Source of the DNA: an uncultured virus (IMG/VR IMGVR_UViG_3300029922_000049)
Lineage: Duplodnaviria > Heunggongvirae > Uroviricota > Caudoviricetes
Direction: 5' to 3' (one strand)
Length of the DNA stretch: 64,000 nt
Virus record (IMG/VR): IMGVR_UViG_3300029922_000049
Shown: positions 9,843 to 62,405 of the stretch, one piece after another
Position numbering within the stretch: position 1 is the first letter of the stretch
Layout: every line of letters starts with the position of its first letter
Made by a program: the position numbers and the translations under genes
Notes under the pieces: generated by a model
Database searches by the model: none
Told to the model about the DNA's origin: nothing
Seen by the model: only the letters and a program-made list of their open reading frames with translations

Positions 9843-11033
9843 CTATAACGTGACTTTTCTTGGGTTGACTGCGAACCCTCTATTCCCTTCAATAAATTCG
9901 GGAACTACTTTTTTAAATATATTTAATGATCCATTCATATCTGCGTTAATTTTAAATCCTTCGTTTGTTTTAAACTGTCCTCTATGAATTCTTTTTCCGA
10001 GATAATTATTATGATGTTTCATCTCTTCATGATCAAAAAACGAACATTTACTGGTAAAAGATTCTTCCGTCAATATTATATCTATTCCTACTAACCTTGC
10101 TTTATACTTTAATGTATTTAATAGATCAAGGTATGGTATTTGAATAAACTTTTGATTGTTTTTCTTACCCATATTACATTCATTTTTCCACTCTTTATTA
10201 TATCCAATTATAATATTTGATACGTTGTGCTCCTCACACCAGCTCACAAGATATTTTGTGACCTTGTGAATTTCACAATTTATCTTATCATTTCTCTTAT
10301 TCGTTAATTTCCTTATTTTATTAGATGTATAAATATTCTTTGGTAAATCACTTTTATATTTTGCAAGCATTTTATTATAATACTGATTTATTGATTTTAA
10401 TGGTTTACCATTGATTATAAAATATTCTTCATTAATATTATTAGTTACTGCACATAAATTATTAATTCCAAGATCAATAGCTATTTTATTATCATTTATC
10501 ATCAATTCTTTTTCAGTGACTTCATATATTATTTCTATCTTATATGAATTCAAACAAGGAATTATCCTTGCTTCTTTTAATTTTCCTCTATCTTTATTTA
10601 TAAAAGGTATTATAATATTAGTACCTGATAGTTTTATATAACCATTCAGATATTCTTTGTGTGAAATAGCACCTAATTCATATGATAATATATTACGGCC
10701 ATTAGTTTTATGTTTATAATAAGGTATTTTAGGCTTACCATTTAATTTATCTTTAATCTTAAGTAATTTAAAGAATGATTTAAAAGACTTATCTACTTGT
10801 TGTAAAACATGATTAGAAACCTTTCTTGGTAATTTAATATAATCTGGTTGATTAGTATCAATAAAAATACGATTTACAGCATTATAATTAAGGTATAATT
10901 TATTGATAAAATAGTATTGCCTAACTGAATAAAGGCATGAGTTATATAAGTTTTTAGACAAAAAACACAGATCATCTATTTCTTTATATAATTTATTTGT
11001 TTTCTTTATATTATGTATTTCAGTCAGGTACAT
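9843..11033 (-). CDS. tnpB: RNA-guided nuclease TnpB
   Basis: RuvC motifs IAIDLGINN, IIIGY..WK, and INADMNGSLNI. EESFTSKCS segment. Confidence 0.9.
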   Translation of the reverse strand: MYLTEIHNIKKTNKLYKEIDDLCFLSKNLYNSCLYSVRQYYFINKLYLNYNAVNRIFIDTNQPDYIKLPRKVSNHVLQQVDKSFKSFFKLLKIKDKLNGKPKIPYYKHKTNGRNILSYELGAISHKEYLNGYIKLSGTNIIIPFINKDRGKLKEARIIPCLNSYKIEIIYEVTEKELMINDNKIAIDLGINNLCAVTNNINEEYFIINGKPLKSINQYYNKMLAKYKSDLPKNIYTSNKIRKLTNKRNDKINCEIHKVTKYLVSWCEEHNVSNIIIGYNKEWKNECNMGKKNNQKFIQIPYLDLLNTLKYKARLVGIDIILTEESFTSKCSFFDHEEMKHHNNYLGKRIHRGQFKTNEGFKINADMNGSLNIFKKVVPEFIEGNRGFAVNPRKVTL

Positions 11034-17055: not shown

Positions 17056-17838
17056 TTATTTTTTGATAAATAAATCAAATTCATTTAATATATCACTGGA
17101 TTTATTAGTTAAAATATATTTTCTAATACTAATATTAAATTTATTAAAAATATATTCTTTAAATTTTGTTATAGCATTACCTAACTCTTTACCTTTTAAT
17201 TCTGGATATATTTCCATTATTATATTTCCATTAAATTTTTTAGAAATTTCTTTATTTTCTATTTCAATTAATTTATAATCTTGAATCTCTTTTTTTATAT
17301 CAGATAAATCTCTAATAGGCTTACAATTAAGTTCATCTCCACCAAAATCAGCAGAATCAAATTTCATCAATTCGTTAAAATATTTATTATTTAAAATTTC
17401 AATTTTATTTTGAATTCTAAAATTATCTAAATATTTAATCTTCATATGATTCTCAACTATATAATATATTAATTTATAATCTCCTACCATTTCTTTTACA
17501 AAATTTGCTTGATCTTCTAGCATTTCACAAGACACATATTCATGTCCAGGAGCAATCCAAGATTTTTTTTCATCACTCCACTCAGTGGTAGATGATTTTC
17601 CTAAATCATGATATAATCCTGCTAAATCTAAATTTATATCATTATATGTTTTATGTAATCTATTTACTACCAATTTAATATGTTCATAAACGTCATATTC
17701 TGGATGCCATACTTCATTTTGCATTACTTCTTTCGTTGAGTCTATTAAATCTTTCAATTCTTTTGGTGAAAGTTCATATAGATATGAAAAATAATCTACA
17801 TATAATTTATCAGTAAATTTATTAAAATTCTTTATCAT
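17056..17838 (-). CDS. HD-domain phosphohydrolase (like the HD/C-terminal part of CCA-adding enzymes)
   Basis: QNEVWHPE.DVYEH, LYHDLGK, GHE, NHM, and C-terminal NGN.IM...LKGKELG. Confidence 0.8.
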   Translation of the reverse strand: MIKNFNKFTDKLYVDYFSYLYELSPKELKDLIDSTKEVMQNEVWHPEYDVYEHIKLVVNRLHKTYNDINLDLAGLYHDLGKSSTTEWSDEKKSWIAPGHEYVSCEMLEDQANFVKEMVGDYKLIYYIVENHMKIKYLDNFRIQNKIEILNNKYFNELMKFDSADFGGDELNCKPIRDLSDIKKEIQDYKLIEIENKEISKKFNGNIIMEIYPELKGKELGNAITKFKEYIFNKFNISIRKYILTNKSSDILNEFDLFIKK

Positions 17839-52391: not shown

Positions 52392-53330
52392 TTATTTTAG
52401 CCACTTCTTAACTGTATTGCCAGTCACACCATAAACTCTACCAACAGCTTCTAAACTTGTATCAGATATCATTAATCTTAATTCATCTTTAGTTGGTCTG
52501 TTCATTACTTTTCTTTCAGATAATCTATAACACTCATTGCACTGATTTGATCTGGTTTGAATTTCTTTGCCGCATGAGCAAATATTTTTTATTGATGGAT
52601 ATTTTTTTCTAATTTTAATTTTTTTTGTTGATTTATTTTGAATTTCTTCTTTTTCTATTAATTCTTTTTCTATTAATTCTTTTTCTTCTAAAATTATACT
52701 TTTTATTTTTTCACTGTCATTAAAATTTATATCATATTCAAACATGATATTTTTTATTACATTATTATCACCTCCTCTTTTTAATCCTATTTTTATTTTG
52801 ACTTCACTGTAATTTTTGGAATTGGAAATAGATTCCAATAATTGTATCTTATCATATGTTTTCTCTGTTCCTTTATTTTTAGATCCATATGTATCTGTTT
52901 GTGTGTGACAATTTGGACATAATATTTTTAAATTTTCAAATTTATGATTTGTACTATCACCATCTTTATGATGTAATTGTAAAGCAATTGGCATATTATT
53001 CCATTCTGTCAACCCGCATTCTTCACATCTATTTTCTTTTAGTCTATCTTTAATTAATCTTTTCTTTAAATGAGTTGTGCCATATGATGGATGCAAACCA
53101 TCTAATATGTCATTTAATGGTATAGCATTTTTTGTTTGCTTATAATTATCTCCAAAATTCCATCCTTGCCCAGTAAAATGATCAATGTTTATATTATATA
53201 ATTTAATATATTTTTTTACTGTGAGAATATTTCCTCCTACTGGCACTAATCCAATATTCTTGCAAGTGCTTGAATAAGAAAATGATTTTTTAATAACTTC
53301 TTCAAATTTTTCTTTATTATATTTATTCAT
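52392..53330 (-). CDS. Free-standing HNH endonuclease
   Basis: CEECG...LQLHHKDGD..N...NL.ILCPNCH, plus C-terminal Zn finger and HTH. Confidence 0.92.
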   Translation of the reverse strand: MNKYNKEKFEEVIKKSFSYSSTCKNIGLVPVGGNILTVKKYIKLYNINIDHFTGQGWNFGDNYKQTKNAIPLNDILDGLHPSYGTTHLKKRLIKDRLKENRCEECGLTEWNNMPIALQLHHKDGDSTNHKFENLKILCPNCHTQTDTYGSKNKGTEKTYDKIQLLESISNSKNYSEVKIKIGLKRGGDNNVIKNIMFEYDINFNDSEKIKSIILEEKELIEKELIEKEEIQNKSTKKIKIRKKYPSIKNICSCGKEIQTRSNQCNECYRLSERKVMNRPTKDELRLMISDTSLEAVGRVYGVTGNTVKKWLK

Positions 53331-53355
53331 ATACTTTTTTTATTGTATATATAAA

Positions 53356-53397
53356 AAAGTGTGAGTCAATTTTTTTAATAAAATTGGCTCACACTTT
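53356..53397 (-). terminator. Hairpin at the 3' end of the tRNA array
   Basis: aaagtgtgagtcaattt...aaattggctcacacttt inverted repeat, followed by a T-run on the minus strand. Confidence 0.7.
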
Positions 53398-53398
53398 G

Positions 53399-53488
53399 TA
53401 TTCCAGGCGGGATTTGGACCCGCAGTGTGTCATTAACTGTATTAGATCCTAAATCTAACGCGTCTCAACCAAGTTTCGCCACTGGAAC
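53399..53488 (-). tRNA. tRNA-Leu (TAG)
   Basis: Acceptor GTTCCAG/CTGGAAT, anticodon arm TTAGA-TTTAGGA-TCTAA, long variable arm, A73. Confidence 0.9.
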
Positions 53489-53496
53489 ATGTATTG

Positions 53497-53570
53497 TAAC
53501 TGAGATGGGAGTCGAACCCACAAAATTCACCTTTTGAGGATGACATGGTTACCAATTACATCACTCAGTC
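53497..53570 (-). tRNA. tRNA-Leu (CAA), short variable loop
   Basis: Acceptor GACTGAG/CTCAGTT, anticodon arm TCATC-CTCAAAA-GGTGA, T-arm GTGGG-TTCGACT-CCCAT, A73, 74 nt. Confidence 0.85.
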
Positions 53571-53577
53571 ATTATTG

Positions 53578-53663
53578 TACTGATGGTGGGACTTGAACCC
53601 ACATTCTTACTTTGTTCAGAAACAGTTTCTTAGACTGCCGCGTATTCATTCCGCCACATCAGC
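53578..53663 (-). tRNA. tRNA-Leu (AAG)
   Basis: Acceptor GCTGATG/CATCAGT, anticodon arm GCAGT-CTAAGAA-ACTGT, long variable arm, A73. Confidence 0.9.
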
Positions 53664-53674
53664 ATGTTTTATTG

Positions 53675-53757
53675 TATTCCTGGTCGGACTCGAACCGACA
53701 CGCCAGTGGGCAAATTCTTTTAAGAAATTTATGTACTACCAATTTCATCACAGGAAC
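53675..53757 (-). tRNA. tRNA-Leu (TAA)
   Basis: Acceptor GTTCCTG/CAGGAAT, anticodon loop CTTAAAA, variable arm GCC-CACT-GGC, T-loop TTCGAGT. Confidence 0.92.
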
Positions 53758-53765
53758 ATTTTTTG

Positions 53766-53851
53766 TACTCTGAGCGGGATTCGGACCCGCATTGTTTCTT
53801 AATGTAATACTTTTTAAAAGTATCGTGTTTCGCCAGTTTCACCACCAGAGC
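53766..53851 (-). tRNA. tRNA-Leu (TAA)
   Basis: Acceptor GCTCTGG/TCAGAGT, anticodon arm ATACT-TTTAAAA-AGTAT, long variable region, A73. Confidence 0.88.
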
Positions 53852-53861
53852 ATTTTATTAT

Positions 53862-53900
53862 AAAAGAAAAACCTCAATCAAATAAATGACTGAGGTCTTT
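53862..53900 (-). terminator. Attenuator terminator (3:4 hairpin) upstream of the tRNA-Leu array
   Basis: ACCTCAGTCA-TTTATT-TGATTGAGGT followed by TTTTCTTTT, about 10 nt before the first tRNA. Confidence 0.9.
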
Positions 53901-53921
53901 TTAATATGCTTATATTATTTG

Positions 53922-54014
53922 TTACAATAGATATGACATAGTACTCTCAGTCCGATTATTTTGTAATAATAGGTTTAAGAGTAGCAAGTTCATTATGTTA
54001 TTGTAGTTTTTCAT
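53922..54014 (-). CDS. Leu-rich leader peptide (30 aa, MKNYNNIMNLLLLNLLLQNNRTESTMSYLL)
   Basis: ATG at 54014 to TAA at 53922. Codons TTG CTA CTC TTA AAC CTA TTA TTA. Below the ORF-track size cutoff. Confidence 0.85.
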   Translation of the reverse strand: MKNYNNIMNLLLLNLLLQNNRTESTMSYLL

Positions 54015-54068
54015 ATCAGTATATATTCTTTAAAAAATATGATTTTTTTCTATTTTTATTATGTAGTA

Positions 54069-54100
54069 CAAAAGTACGGAAAAGTTTTCAATTCACCAAA
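54069..54100 (-). promoter_or_regulatory. Bacteroidota primary-sigma promoter for the leader/tRNA operon
   Basis: TTTG(54100-54097)-N20-TACTTTTG(54076-54069). Confidence 0.85.
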
Positions 54101-56332
54101 CTTTTTATTGAAAAGTTTTATCTTTTTTATATTCATTATTTACAATAGCATCAAGAATCTTTTTTTGTCCTTTTTCAGAAACATCATCAAAAGGAAAATC
54201 TTCTCCCATTTCTAAGCAATATACATCATTTTTATATGTATAAATCGCTTCAACTTCTTGGTTATTTGTGAATACGCATGGCGTAGTATGATTCTTACCT
54301 AATATTTCTAAAATTTTTTGTTTCATATTTTTATTTTTAATTAATTATTCGGACCAACTTCATCAATTCCGATAGATTTCAAATATTTTAAGCATTCAAA
54401 TTCAGTTTTAAACTTTATTGGTTTATAAGAATTATTATAATCTCTTTTTATTTTTCTTATTTTTTTAAAATTTTCATAGAAATCTTCATTATCTACTTTA
54501 TATATCAAGTCATGATCATCAAAATAAGGATATTCATAATTAAAATATTTTTCATTATATAAAGTGACGTATATTTGTTTTTGTCTTGTTTCGACGTTAC
54601 ATAGTAATCTTACATTTTTATATAATTTATCTTGCATTTGTTCGTGTACTGTTTTGAATTCATTTGATAATTTTACATCTTTTTTATAATCAATCATATA
54701 TCATTCAATTCTTTTAATTTTTCAATTCTTAATTTATTTAATTCAAATTTTTCTTTTATTTCTTTTAAATATATATTTAGTTTATCAAATTTTTCCCGTA
54801 TCTCAATGAATTCGATTGTATTATAACTTATATTATAAAGTATTCATTCCAAAGATAAACTTTTTTTCTCTAAAAATACAATTTCATTTTCAATATCTTT
54901 AAATTTCATGATATATTATTTAATTCTTTCAATTTTTCGATTCTTAATCTATTTTCTTCTAATTTTTTATAAAGTATATTATTTTCTTTTTTGAGTTCAA
55001 ATTTACGATATATTAAATTAACATATTCTTTATCAATCAATCTATTACTATTTAGCATTACGTTAAGGTAAAATATTCTATTATCATTAAATAAAATTTT
55101 ATTTACAATATCTTTTGATGTCATGATTAATATATTTTTATATTAAATTATTTCTCCTCTTTTTATTTCTTTTCTTCTATTTATGATATTTACTTTTTCA
55201 TGAATCTTCATTCTTATATCATCTTTAGAAAATATTTCAGATTCAATATGACCATATATTTGGAATATAAATTTTGGAATTGTTTTTATAATTATAGGGC
55301 CAAATATTAAATATTTAGGATGACTAGCATAAGTAGTATTATAGTAAAAATATGTTTTTTCACCACAATTATCTTCAACTTGATGATATTGATATTTTTT
55401 ACCATCATATACAATTTCTTTATATTTTGGATCTTTATAATCTTTAAAAATAAAGGTTTTATTATTTAATTTTTTAGTTGTCATATTATAGTTTATTAAT
55501 TTCTAATATAGCTTCTGCTACATATAAATATTCAATTTCTGTATTATCATATTCAAATGTTCTATTTTCATCTCTATAGTATATTGATTGACCTAACAAT
55601 TTACGAATACAAATATAGTTATGTTTAATTCTTGATTTAAAAACATCGCAATCAGGATAAAGTATTTTTACTTTATCTATCAATTCTTTTGTAATTTTAC
55701 TCTTGCTCATTTTTTGTTTTTGATATGTGTTATTTTTTCAGTTACTACTAATAGCTGACTAATATCTTCAGCAGGTGAAAACAACCAAGATGTTTCATTA
55801 AAAATATCTTTAATTGTATCACATCTATTAATTATGAGACTAATTGCTTTTTTGAAATCTTTTTCTGTTATATGTGTAACAATAACTTCTTGATTATCAA
55901 TTATTTGTATTTTACTTTTCATATTTTATTGTAATTTATTGTTTTACAAAGCAGTCATTAATCCAAAATGTTTTGGTATATAAATATGAAGGATTAGTAA
56001 AACATATTTGTTGAATTGTTGCGGTTTCCATCCAAATCATTCTACCTTTTAAAATTAATGGGTACCATAAAAATTTAGTTATTAATCTTACGTCTCCATG
56101 ATCACCAAAATTCTTATTTTTTCTAAAATCTATTTGCATACAATTTTTATTTACGTTTCATAAATTTATTCATCAATCATAATATAAATGATAGACTCTA
56201 CAATTAAAAGTGCACATATTGCTATTATTGCTGACATAATTTATAGTTTTTAATTTGAATAAAATATTGAATACAAAGATAAAAAAAAGTCCTCACATAA
56301 GCAAGGACTTTTTCATTTATTTTCATATTATT

Positions 56333-59531: not shown

Positions 59532-60992
59532 TTATAATTTTTCACGGAGTATTAAATAATAATCTTTTTTGTAAGGATTATTATTTAATGCTTGGATAAG
59601 CCTCTCATTATCCGTCCATACCTTACTGTCAATAAAATCATTGATCAAAAGGGTTCTTTTCTTATTCCTGTCATTAACTGTGTAAAACAATTTTTCGCCG
59701 AAACGTTCTTCGAAATTATATAATGTTTTACCTGCATTAACATCAGCATTTATTTTTTTACCACAGCAAAGACATTCAAATTCTTTCTGTGATTTTCTAT
59801 TATTTTTGTCTATATATCCACATTTACTACAAGTCTGGCTTGAGTAAGCTGCATCAATAAATTTAATTTTAACTCCGTAATCTATTTTTAATTGATTAAG
59901 TTTACTCTTGATAATACTTAATCCAAATCTATGGAGTAAACGATTATTCTTTTTGCCAATGTTACTACCTTTAAAATCTAAATCTTCCATGATTAAGGTT
60001 TCTGGTTTATATTTTTTATAAATTTTATTAAATATCCGATTGATCTCGTTTTTACTGAAATCTCTAATCATATTAACTAATTTATTATATTCACTAAACT
60101 CAGATAACTTTACATACTTACCATGAATTTCTTTCAAATGATTAGTTAATATCATTAATTGATCATCTAATTTCTTTAACTTTTTCAAGTACCATTTACC
60201 GTAGGTTTCTCCATTATTTGTTGCTAACAGAATATTTAATCCAATGTCAAACGATAATTTAACTTTACTTAATTCTGGTTTAATAATATCTAATTCTTTA
60301 GTTATCAATACACTATTGAATTTATGATCTTTGAATATTAATGTACAAGAAGTATTAAGTTTACCTTCAAATTTGTCAGCGTATTTATTATTTAGTAAAG
60401 GAATGTAATAAAATTTACCTTTGATATTTTTTTTTCCTGATGATAATTTAATTACATATTTTATATTAGAATTTAAGCCAGTTGGTGTTTCAATGACGGC
60501 AATTTTATACTGAAGTACCATGTTAATATTTTTGCATGATGGTAATTTACCAAAGAAGTTCTTGAATATCCAACGACCAAGTTTAATTGTTTCGTAATTT
60601 ACCTTGTGATTTTTACCATGAATGTCTTCATTAATGAAAAATAAATTCCTTTTATTTACTAAACATAAATCTTTCTTTATTTCGTTACTTAAGTTACTTG
60701 ATAGTACAATCTTGTTGAATTTACGCTTGAAATTACTGACTTTAGATTTAAACAATCCAACTACTTGTCTATTTATTGCATCTTTATAACGTTCAGTTAG
60801 AAATGTATAAACGTCTTTGTAGAGCGAGTTATCAATACAAATTGAATTATATTTATAGTAATGATTCATATGTTTATTTATTAACACTTCAGCTACTCTA
60901 CGCCACTCTGGATATAATTTATCCTGAATGTGTTTTGTTTTAATATCATTTGCGTTGGTGATAAATTTATAAGATTTGATCATTAAATTCAA
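59532..60992 (-). CDS. tnpB: Solo TnpB (IS200/IS605/IS607-type RNA-guided nuclease)
   Basis: SFDIGLN, MEDLDF, YSSQTCSKCG...FECLCCG...NADVNA. No adjacent transposase. Confidence 0.88.
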   Translation of the reverse strand: MNLMIKSYKFITNANDIKTKHIQDKLYPEWRRVAEVLINKHMNHYYKYNSICIDNSLYKDVYTFLTERYKDAINRQVVGLFKSKVSNFKRKFNKIVLSSNLSNEIKKDLCLVNKRNLFFINEDIHGKNHKVNYETIKLGRWIFKNFFGKLPSCKNINMVLQYKIAVIETPTGLNSNIKYVIKLSSGKKNIKGKFYYIPLLNNKYADKFEGKLNTSCTLIFKDHKFNSVLITKELDIIKPELSKVKLSFDIGLNILLATNNGETYGKWYLKKLKKLDDQLMILTNHLKEIHGKYVKLSEFSEYNKLVNMIRDFSKNEINRIFNKIYKKYKPETLIMEDLDFKGSNIGKKNNRLLHRFGLSIIKSKLNQLKIDYGVKIKFIDAAYSSQTCSKCGYIDKNNRKSQKEFECLCCGKKINADVNAGKTLYNFEERFGEKLFYTVNDRNKKRTLLINDFIDSKVWTDNERLIQALNNNPYKKDYYLILREKL

Positions 60993-61655: not shown

Positions 61656-62405
61656 TTATTTATCTAATACATATTTATCATAATAATCATTAAATCCATC
61701 CATCATAGTGGTAATTGAATTTGAATTATCATCTTTTAATCCAATAATAGTATCGATCAAACCATATTGTACTGCTTGATCTGAATTTAACCATTTATCT
61801 CTTTGACAAAAATTGTGGATTTCTTCAAACGGCTTTCCAGTATTTTGAGAAAGAATCTTGAATAATAAAAAATTATATTTTTCAGTCTCCATTTGACTAA
61901 TACGAGTGTCATCTACTTTACCACTAGTTCCAGCAGCAACATGATGTAACATAACGGTAGCATTAATTAGTGATGAACGTTTACCTTTTTCACCAGAAGA
62001 AAGTAGAACAGACCCCATTGACGCGCACATTGCTAAATTGACTGTAGACACATCAGACTTAATCCAGTTCATTACATCAATGATACCAAGTCCTTGTATA
62101 ACTGACCCGCCTGGACTTGAAATTTGCATTGTAATATCCTTTCCAGGTTCTGCATTATCCAAATATAACAATTGTGCTTGAATAATATCTGACATAACAT
62201 CATCTACTTCTCCAGAGACCCATAAAATTCTATCTAAAAGCAATCTATCAAACACAGATAATTGTGTAACATTTAATTTTCTTTCTTCTAATATCATAGG
62301 GGTTAGTCCATAATTCTTAATTTGATATTTTATTGCATTATCTACCACTGTTGAATTCATACGTAAATGCTTAGTAGCGTAGTTTTTGAAATCGTTTTTC
62401 TGCAT
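61656..62405 (-). CDS. clpP: ATP-dependent Clp protease proteolytic subunit
   Basis: AQLLYLD, ISSPGGSV, CASMGS (catalytic Ser), MLHH, RDKWL...YGLID. Confidence 0.95.
   Translation of the reverse strand: MQKNDFKNYATKHLRMNSTVVDNAIKYQIKNYGLTPMILEERKLNVTQLSVFDRLLLDRILWVSGEVDDVMSDIIQAQLLYLDNAEPGKDITMQISSPGGSVIQGLGIIDVMNWIKSDVSTVNLAMCASMGSVLLSSGEKGKRSSLINATVMLHHVAAGTSGKVDDTRISQMETEKYNFLLFKILSQNTGKPFEEIHNFCQRDKWLNSDQAVQYGLIDTIIGLKDDNSNSITTMMDGFNDYYDKYVLDK

Follow-up and report, generated by a model that had tools for sequence, protein, structure and literature searches.

Why should a phage place a short open reading frame (ORF) full of leucine codons, followed by a transcription terminator, in front of five tRNA genes that are all for leucine? 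The question is raised by a 64,000-nucleotide stretch of DNA from an uncultured virus of the Caudoviricetes (IMG/VR record IMGVR_UViG_3300029922_000049), called the window here. Positions 54100-53350 of the window, read on the minus strand, form a single compact unit consisting of promoter, leader ORF, terminator, five tRNA-Leu genes and a closing hairpin, which we call the Leu unit. We consider it likely that this unit is a ribosome-mediated leader-peptide transcription attenuator that gates an operon of five tRNA-Leu genes in an uncultured phage, one that is huge and AT-rich. The parts of the unit, their order, the alternative pairings of the RNA, and the recurrence of the same arrangement with other amino acids before other tRNA arrays are shown by the sequence analysis. 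An initial annotation of this DNA had placed a promoter at 54100-54069, a 30-codon ORF at 54014-53922, a terminator and five tRNA-Leu genes on the minus strand, and all of these were located as claimed.

Organization of the Leu unit

All coordinates in this section are on the minus strand. The unit starts with TTTGGTGAATTGAAAACTTTTCCGTACTTTTGTA (54067-54100), which has the form of a Bacteroidetes promoter, namely TTTG (54100-54097), 20 nt, and TAnnTTTG (TACTTTTG, 54076-54069). On the strength of the motif alone, 54100-54069 is a putative promoter of this type, and it is likewise the motif alone that suggests a Bacteroidetes host for the phage. An extended form of the pattern, TTTGGTnnAnnnAAAACTT-N5-TAnnTTTGTA, has its sole exact match within the window at 54100-54067; if up to three mismatches are allowed there are three matches, compared to 0.02 expected from shuffled sequences. 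The extended pattern is also found upstream of leaders in phage LR756502, discussed below (regions L013, L015 and L017). We considered whether it is specific to tRNA leaders. This idea was rejected, because in 15 of the 31 distinct IMG/VR loci that carry the pattern no combination of terminator and following tRNA lies within 350 nt. Ordinary genes come next in most of the 15, and in a few there is a terminator but the 870 nt fetched contain no tRNA.

The promoter is followed by about 50 nt of 5' leader RNA and then by the leader ORF (53922-54014), which has 30 codons and a stop codon and encodes MKNYNNIMNLLLLNLLLQNNRTESTMSYLL. The motif ATATATAC lies 5 nt upstream of its ATG (54019-54026). The same motif or a close variant (ATATATAA) is present a short way upstream of the ATG in 10 of 15 aligned leaders from the phages described below (LR756502, LR756504 and G002), among them leaders without the TTTG/TAnnTTTG promoter. 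The motif may act as a second, phage-specific promoter or as a translation-initiation signal.

Codons 10-17 of the leader (53964-53987) form the regulatory run LLLLNLLL, in which seven of the eight codons are Leu. Such a density of at least seven Leu in eight codons occurs at just three sites in the six frames of the 64 kb, one of which is the leader ORF. The nine Leu codons of the leader are TTG CTA CTC TTA CTA TTA TTA CTA TTG, while the long ORFs of the window use TTA for 70% of their Leu codons and CTC for 1.1%. The first four (TTG CTA CTC TTA) correspond to all four anticodon species of the array, which has a probability of 0.015 under gene usage, and the anticodons of the array are able to read all nine.

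The intrinsic terminator with its T-rich tail occupies 53858-53900, and has a 14-bp stem at 53900-53867. It starts 24 nt past the stop codon of the leader, and the scanned region contains three terminator-like sites, compared to 0.4 ± 0.7 in shuffled sequences. The five tRNA-Leu genes were identified by both ARAGORN and Rfam, with scores of 46.5-53.7 bits against the Rfam tRNA model (gathering score 29). Their anticodons are UAA (53765-53851), UAA (53674-53757), AAG (53577-53663), CAA (53496-53570; 74-75 nt, with a short variable region) and UAG (53398-53488). The operon is closed by a terminator hairpin (53350-53397, -17.9 kcal/mol) followed by a T-run. The first tRNA begins only 15 nt beyond the terminator stem, which leaves the array without room for a promoter of its own. 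Matches to sigma-70-like promoters are not enriched in the region (16, against 18.6 ± 3.4 in shuffled sequences). A candidate internal promoter of this kind at 53881-53852, which fits at 9 of 12 positions and overlaps the 3' arm of the terminator, was rejected, such matches being no commoner than in shuffles.

Alternative pairings in the leader RNA

Segment 1 (UACUCUUA, 53983-53976) lies inside the Leu run. Segment 2 (GGACUGAGAGUAC, 53941-53953, minus strand) covers codons 21-25, and has two alternative pairing partners, segment 1 and the terminator 5' arm, which contains segment 3 (CUCAGUC, 53894-53888); segments 3 and 4 make up the terminator. The leader RNA has a predicted folding energy of -43.4 kcal/mol (z = -5.83), and none of 200 shuffled sequences folds as well. 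The minimum-energy fold contains the UACUCUUA/UGAGAGUA helix, CC/GG and an inner AUUAUU/AAUAAU stem, and so includes the stem between segments 1 and 2, with its inner TTATT/AATAA, that had been proposed in the initial annotation. The alternative pairing proposed there, GACTGAG with CTCAGTC, was also recovered: as the antiterminator, GACUGAG(A)GU of segment 2 pairs with ACCUCAGUC of the terminator 5' arm at -12.9 kcal/mol. The corresponding value in 300 dinucleotide shuffles of the upstream region is -5.5 ± 1.7 kcal/mol, and none of the 300 reaches the observed one (z = -4.4). The calculated helix energies are -11.7 (1:2), -13.5 (2:3) and -18.3 kcal/mol (3:4).

Because attenuators act kinetically, equilibrium folding was dropped as a test of the switch. 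Instead the transcript was cut just before segment 4 and folded with a modelled ribosome footprint. In this model the naked RNA forms 1:2, and none of the 11 stem bases of the terminator arm is sequestered. When the ribosome is stalled on one of the seven Leu codons in the run, whichever it is, segment 2 is freed and sequesters nine of the 11 bases; and when the ribosome is at the stop codon 1:2 re-forms, and again no base of the arm is sequestered. The 1:2 / 2:3 / 3:4 logic of the initial annotation therefore holds in the model, in the order 0/9/0.

The Leu unit combines the sequence features that characterize a leader-peptide attenuator, namely an ORF with Leu codons, an intrinsic terminator, a mutually exclusive antiterminator, and regulated genes that are cognate to the codons. 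The design is kept at homologous and paralogous loci, that is, in the Leu variants, in 14 other leader/array pairs and in promoter-anchored loci, all of which are described below.

Leaders before other tRNA arrays

The initial annotation had suggested scanning for other pairs of leader and cognate tRNA. The outcome was strongly positive, with one pair in G002 (a 235-kb relative), 13 in two 640-kb phages (LR756502 and LR756504), and more in promoter-anchored loci of IMG/VR. The second array of G002 consists of Arg, Pro, Ala, Gly, Gly, Val, Val, Thr, Thr, Thr and Arg tRNAs. Upstream of it are the ORF MNNISRHITTGTATTTATTPVTGGRPVAYLGDNNLS and a terminator, and the residues of the leader (Thr, Gly, Ala, Pro, Val and Arg) are exactly those of the tRNAs in the array. 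The leader contains UUUGGGU, which is complementary to ACCCAAA in the terminator arm. It is GC-rich, and so cannot stem from AT bias.

In LR756502, a 642-kb phage, one stretch shares 75.5% identity with the window's promoter and 5' leader. There the sequence continues with an ORF rich in Gln, Asp and Pro, a terminator, and tRNAs for Pro, Pro, Asp, Asp and Asp. About 800 nt further on (L013 4065-6094) is MTTSFQQQQQQQINRTD, with seven consecutive Gln codons, followed by a terminator and four tRNA-Gln genes. After these comes a gene for a class-I Glu/Gln-tRNA synthetase (PF00749, E = 9e-93). No terminator was found between the tRNA-Gln genes and the synthetase gene, and they may share one attenuator. 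In LR756504, MKAMILSLCLSLSLSLQKLGVVGVCKVIS (LSLCLSLSLSL) and a terminator stand before tRNAs for Leu, Leu, Ser, Cys, Ser, Ser, Leu and Leu. A further example among the pairs is the leader IAIVEIAVIGGAEEGV, upstream of Glu, Ala, Ile, Val, Gly and Glu tRNAs.

Leaders and arrays were defined by a fixed rule. The terminator had to be of -12 kcal/mol or stronger, at most 350 nt upstream of a tRNA and on the same strand; the leader was the longest ATG ORF of 8-80 codons ending at most 110 nt before the terminator; and the array was every tRNA up to the next qualifying terminator. It was used on the window and on the regions of LR756502, LR756504 and G002 that contain tRNAs, with variant B of the Leu unit (L012, see below) excluded. 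The tRNA matches listed in the two 640-kb records number 50 and 45, and all the tRNA regions were fetched; three of the fetched regions (L020, L021 and L029) are outside the analysis because ARAGORN found no tRNA in them.

A short ORF precedes all 15 qualifying terminators, with a gap of 13-33 nt between stop codon and terminator. These are the 13 pairs of the two 640-kb phages, the one in G002, and the Leu unit of the window. The terminator hairpins have energies of -12.9 to -19.3 kcal/mol, each with a T-run. Of 413 leader residues, 177 are cognate to their own array, compared to 71.4 ± 12.3 when the arrays are permuted among the leaders; the highest value in 100,000 permutations was 138, and so none reached 177. 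The correspondence extends to codons. Leader codons sample 64 of the 69 anticodon species in the arrays, and 159 of the 177 cognate codons can be read by an anticodon of the array. Arginine is encoded as AGA in leaders of arrays with Arg(UCU) and as CGN in those with Arg(ACG/UCG), and isoleucine as ATA in leaders whose array has Ile(UAU) and as ATT where it has Ile(GAU). Nine of the 15 leaders show significant 2:3 complementarity (p ≤ 0.013), and the mean z is -3.2. In the footprint model, a stalled ribosome leads to sequestration of the terminator arm in all 16 modelled leaders, at most stall positions, and the Leu leader of the window is among those with three clean states.

A second, independent sample took the extended promoter pattern as its anchor instead of the tRNAs, and comprises 46 IMG/VR loci. 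Of these 31 are distinct, and in 16 of the 31 a terminator and then tRNAs follow. Examples are THKHFSKSNKWF before Phe, His, Phe and Trp, and MPQPMQDQD before Gln, Pro, Asp, Gln, Pro and Asp. For the permutation test, Leu leaders and peptides more than 70% identical to ones already kept were dropped, leaving nine leaders, with arrays bounded by the 870 nt fetched. The number of cognate residues was 49 of 290, against 28.2 ± 7.1 in permutations, of which 91 in 50,000 reach 49. As far as comparison of sequences can go, the evidence across arrays is decisive for attenuation.

Variants of the Leu unit, genome context and RNA traces

Relatives of the Leu unit were sought in IMG/VR with an exact pattern taken from part of the first tRNA, and again with the promoter pattern. 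The first search gave seven contigs with two variants of the unit, and the second gave a third variant. A further exact-pattern search, with the 3' half of tRNA-Leu(CAA), returned three contigs that were already known and nothing further. Across promoter, leader and terminator, identity among the three variants is about 94% or more. The initial annotation had proposed conservation of the Leu run and covariation of the stems as checks: the Leu leader recurs in three close variants, and at this level of identity covariation is uninformative. Variants B and C have G-C in place of a G.U pair in the terminator, and of the four substitutions between variants A and B three are non-synonymous. A 73-codon gene located ahead of the promoter in the window is missing from variant B, which implies that promoter, leader and array move as one module.

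The GC content of the window is 20-29%. The nearest record (G001), an IMG/VR contig, is 125 kb long and contains only these five tRNAs; it is rated by CheckV as 18% complete, which points to a very large phage. Genes in the window include one with an N-terminus like that of baseplate/tail-fibre connectors, and several homing and HNH endonucleases. The stretch was found in metagenome runs from peat, permafrost and freshwater. A blastn search against 50,697 deposited phage records gave matches in seven records only, all of them short and of the size of a tRNA or promoter; LR756502 is one of the seven.

Contigs identical to the leader were present in two of three RNA-library runs, from different studies. 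In one run a single contig covers 53890-54012 at a depth of 22; in the other, two contigs cover 53845-53938 and 53909-53991 at a depth of 2-3. No RNA contig covers the flanking protein genes in the three RNA-library runs, in which uncovered parts are uninformative. Run X21 gave only short pieces, which diverge from the stretch further on. A DNA run covers 25 of 30 bins of the stretch, flanking genes included. The RNA contigs would fit an abundant short leader transcript, but they show no ends, strand or level and could be DNA carry-over, and are at most a weak hint.

Proposed mechanism

In the mechanism that we propose, transcription would start from the promoter at 54100-54069, and the 30-codon leader would be translated while the RNA is still growing. 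If Leu codons are decoded quickly, the ribosome would reach the stop codon, 1:2 would pair again and the 3:4 terminator would form, halting RNA polymerase 15 nt ahead of the first tRNA gene. If charged tRNA-Leu is scarce for even one of the four anticodon species, stalling would occur in LLLLNLLL, with the ribosome covering segment 1. Segment 2 would then take the 5' arm of the terminator, and the polymerase would continue into the five tRNA-Leu genes. Readthrough would in this way respond to the speed of Leu decoding, and the outcome would be negative feedback that fits the supply of tRNA-Leu to the demand for decoding. In nature the shortage would presumably come from a mismatch in codon usage with the host, from host shut-off or from host tRNA nucleases; a tie to host anticodon nucleases in particular is speculation.

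Several observations weigh against this mechanism. Equilibrium folding of the full transcript favours the terminator in every case, even when a stalled ribosome occupies the Leu codons, and the switch therefore has to be kinetic, as it is in known attenuators. The 2:3 duplex is not significant in six of the 15 leaders. The terminator arm is free in only four of 16 leaders as naked RNA, and in four of 16 with the ribosome at the stop codon; in the leaders without clean states, it would have to be the translating ribosome itself, and not a 1:2 hairpin, that blocks antitermination, although the footprint model is a crude one. Since the Leu leader is known from three close variants only, there is no real covariation. 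Variant B has lost a Leu codon, the fourth, which is changed from TTA to TCA (Ser), a change that also improves a pair of the 1:2 stem from U.G to C-G. In segment 2 of the same variant a G-to-A change disrupts another pair of the 1:2 stem and leaves a weaker 2:3 helix of 7 bp; the three-state pattern is kept, at 0/7/0. No qualifying terminator was found for the single or paired tRNAs in L018, L019, L024, L026 and L028, nor for the first tRNAs of L022 and L027, and gating is thus not universal among phage tRNAs. Coupling of transcription and translation in the host is an assumption. Finally, amino-acid starvation would trigger readthrough too, and extra tRNA is no cure for that.

Alternative explanations

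Could the arrangement be an accident? A short ORF might lie by chance in front of an ordinary leaky terminator that insulates upstream genes, with the tRNAs made constitutively by readthrough and the Leu run produced by an AT-rich sequence. The Leu codon TTA is common in this AT-rich genome, whose GC content is 21-25%, the other two sites in the window with seven Leu in eight codons are in non-genic frames, and the Leu leader is kept in close relatives only. Against this, a short ORF that tracks the array accompanies 15 of 15 terminators before arrays, at a regular spacing from stop codon to terminator (13-33 nt), and the match of leaders to arrays, which goes down to the level of codons, is reached in none of the 100,000 permutations. 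Nor does AT bias explain the GC-rich leader TTGTATTTATTPVTGGRPVA, or chance the 2:3 complementarity of the Leu unit with its z of -4.4. An accident is for these reasons very improbable. The short ORFs might, on the other hand, be genes for small trans-acting peptides, whose place before tRNA arrays is incidental. Many of them start with MK(T/N) and have 17-38 residues, and trans-acting leader peptides such as peTrpL have been described. The sequences are not conserved as proteins, however; their composition shifts with the tRNA content of the array behind them, and the changes between variants A and B are mostly non-synonymous (3 of 4), so that we see very little likelihood in this explanation.

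The remaining two explanations accept that the element responds to tRNA. A translated leader could sense cognate decoding while the output is the processing or decay of the tRNA precursor, or access by Rho, the hairpin and T-run then being a processing or stability element. It agrees with this that in 12 of 16 leaders the crude model gives no clean terminator-on state for the free RNA, and that some leaders come directly behind another tRNA in a longer operon, where processing must occur. We regard it as unlikely, because a canonical intrinsic terminator (-12.9 to -19.3 kcal/mol, with T-run) follows every leader, and nine of the 15 have a segment, within the ORF or immediately past it, that is significantly complementary to the 5' arm of that terminator, which is the signature of antitermination and not of processing. 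Alternatively the tRNA might be sensed without translation, as in a T-box, with the Leu codons acting as specifier-like sites for uncharged tRNA-Leu; the regulated genes are related to tRNA and the element is a terminator/antiterminator switch, as would be required. But neither a T-box nor another leader family was found at threshold in Rfam in a search with E values up to 10, the cognate codons are in a single frame from ATG to stop in all 15 leaders, and multivalent leaders list up to six amino acids, which is impossible for a single specifier. This possibility is extremely remote.

Comparison with known systems

The Leu unit was compared with known leader families using cmscan against Rfam over 52800-54600, with E values up to 10. 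No Leu, Trp, His, Thr or Phe leader family was found in this region, and no T-box; above threshold there are only the five tRNAs. Matches to rnk_leader (27.7 bits, where the gathering score is 50), Spot 42 and microRNAs were below threshold and were rejected, as they look like chance matches to a sequence of hairpin plus T-run.

The arrangement is that of the trpL, leuL, hisL and pheL attenuators, which likewise have a promoter, a short ORF with regulatory codons, segments pairing as 1:2, 2:3 and 3:4, and a terminator before the regulated genes. The helix energies of the Leu unit resemble those of the trp leader. The multivalent ilvGMEDA and thr leaders are a parallel to the leaders of other phage arrays that list several amino acids. 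Unlike the Leu unit, which controls tRNA genes, the enterobacterial attenuators control biosynthetic enzymes; here the product is the tRNA itself, and feedback would act directly on the quantity that is sensed. The Leu unit also differs in being in a phage, in having a Bacteroidetes-type promoter, and in lacking sequence similarity to the leader families of Rfam. Its stop codon comes after segment 2, and not between 1 and 2, so the terminated state depends on 1:2 re-forming behind the ribosome.

The pheM leader of E. coli pheST is an attenuator that acts on a synthetase only, and thus on the translation apparatus and not on biosynthesis. In this it is like the phage units, and its nearest parallel is the LR756502 leader with seven Gln codons, four tRNA-Gln genes and a GlnRS-like gene. 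It is unlike them in that here the first of the regulated genes are tRNA genes, and in the window there are no others. The T-box is also a terminator/antiterminator switch that responds to the state of a specific tRNA and controls genes related to translation. It binds the tRNA directly and needs no translation, whereas the cognate codons of the Leu unit are in a frame that is presumed to be translated.

No published account of leader-peptide control of tRNA genes was found in the full-text literature searched, to which subscription journals contribute little. Within that scope this agrees with the initial annotation, which knew of no phage tRNA array under such control. The main text of a survey of huge phages contains none of the terms 'attenuat', 'leader' or 'terminator' (PMC7162821). 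One article that appeared to combine jumbo phage, tRNA and attenuator was considered as a precedent and rejected as unrelated (PMC10914365). Leader-peptide attenuation of phage tRNA genes is thus a real use of this mechanism that is apparently undescribed.

Features of the tRNAs and neighbouring genes

Some features of the tRNAs themselves are unusual. The tRNA-Leu(CAA) at 53496-53570 (-) has a variable region of 5 nt and the shape of a class-I tRNA, while the long arm that tRNA-Leu should have is seen in the other four. LR756504 (L014 3004-3164) and LR756502 (L017 2644-2802) contain short 'Leu' tRNAs as well. Anticodons starting with A, which are unusual in bacteria outside tRNA-Arg, were found in Leu(AAG) of the window (53577-53663, -) and in Thr(AGT) and Val(AAC) of the G002 array (L011 2554-2708); they may be read as inosine or decode with unmodified A34. 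None of the five tRNA-Leu genes encodes CCA, and CAA follows each of them. In another part of the window is an ORF (17056-17838, -) that matches a phage tRNA nucleotidyltransferase family (phrog_2244, E = 4.8e-11). In the second array of G002 there are tRNA-like stretches between the annotated tRNAs (L011 3268-3504 and 2457-2554, both -). ARAGORN makes no call for these stretches, and the Rfam score of one of them is only 33.7 bits; they may be tRNAs that are unusual or in decay.

Directly past the terminator that closes the Leu array is an HNH endonuclease gene (52392-53330, -; PF01844 weak; phrog_10822, E = 1e-42). The Leu/Ser/Cys array of LR756504 is split by a 234-codon ORF with no Pfam match (L014 2226-2930). 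The tRNA arrays seem to be landing sites for mobile genes. The first tRNA of the Leu/Ser/Cys array is 276 nt beyond the terminator, and between the two is a 90-codon ORF, again with no Pfam match (L014 1416-1688). Other genes of the window, all on the minus strand, are two TnpB/Cas12f-like ORFs with OrfB_IS605 and TNB domain (59532-60992 and 9843-11033) and a gene for a ClpP protease (61656-62405).

Four IMG/VR loci (L034, L036, L039 and L049) share a conserved short ORF, MYRNLYINEEMCNNEIINNIDDTSQLTEK or a variant of it, with a terminator and clear 2:3 complementarity. It is followed by an ORF of 65-134 codons (83 in L034), after which comes a tRNA-Met in L034 and L049; no tRNA was found in L036 and L039 within the 870 nt fetched. 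The composition of the short ORF (Asn, Ile, Glu and Asp) does not match tRNA-Met.

Biological significance

The roles proposed for phage tRNA genes include compensation for codon usage, replacement of degraded host tRNAs, and escape from defences that target tRNA (PMC10264068). A leader that switches on a block of tRNAs only when its own codons are read slowly would reveal the signal to which the phage responds, namely slow decoding of specific codons. Because the leader names this signal, the question of why phages carry tRNAs can be tested with simple reporters.

Looking beyond the Leu unit, we lean, by a little, towards the view that huge phages have a multi-channel tRNA homeostat resolved to the level of codons, in which each block of tRNAs has a leader of its own and only those decoding capacities that are sensed in real time to be failing are replaced. 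Each leader would list the amino acids of its block and sample its anticodon species, the Leu unit being the single-channel form; and the logic would reach phage synthetase genes, as in the Gln unit with its GlnRS-like gene.

Leader-peptide attenuation would be extended from the supply of amino acids to the supply of tRNA, as a direct feedback loop. The leaders also provide a readout, from sequence only, of which tRNAs share one regulatory unit in uncultured huge phages, and they may be of use in synthetic biology as compact sensors specific for an amino acid or a codon. If tRNA-cleaving defences of the host are the main trigger, the phages would have made an inducible counter-defence sensor from a classic attenuator.

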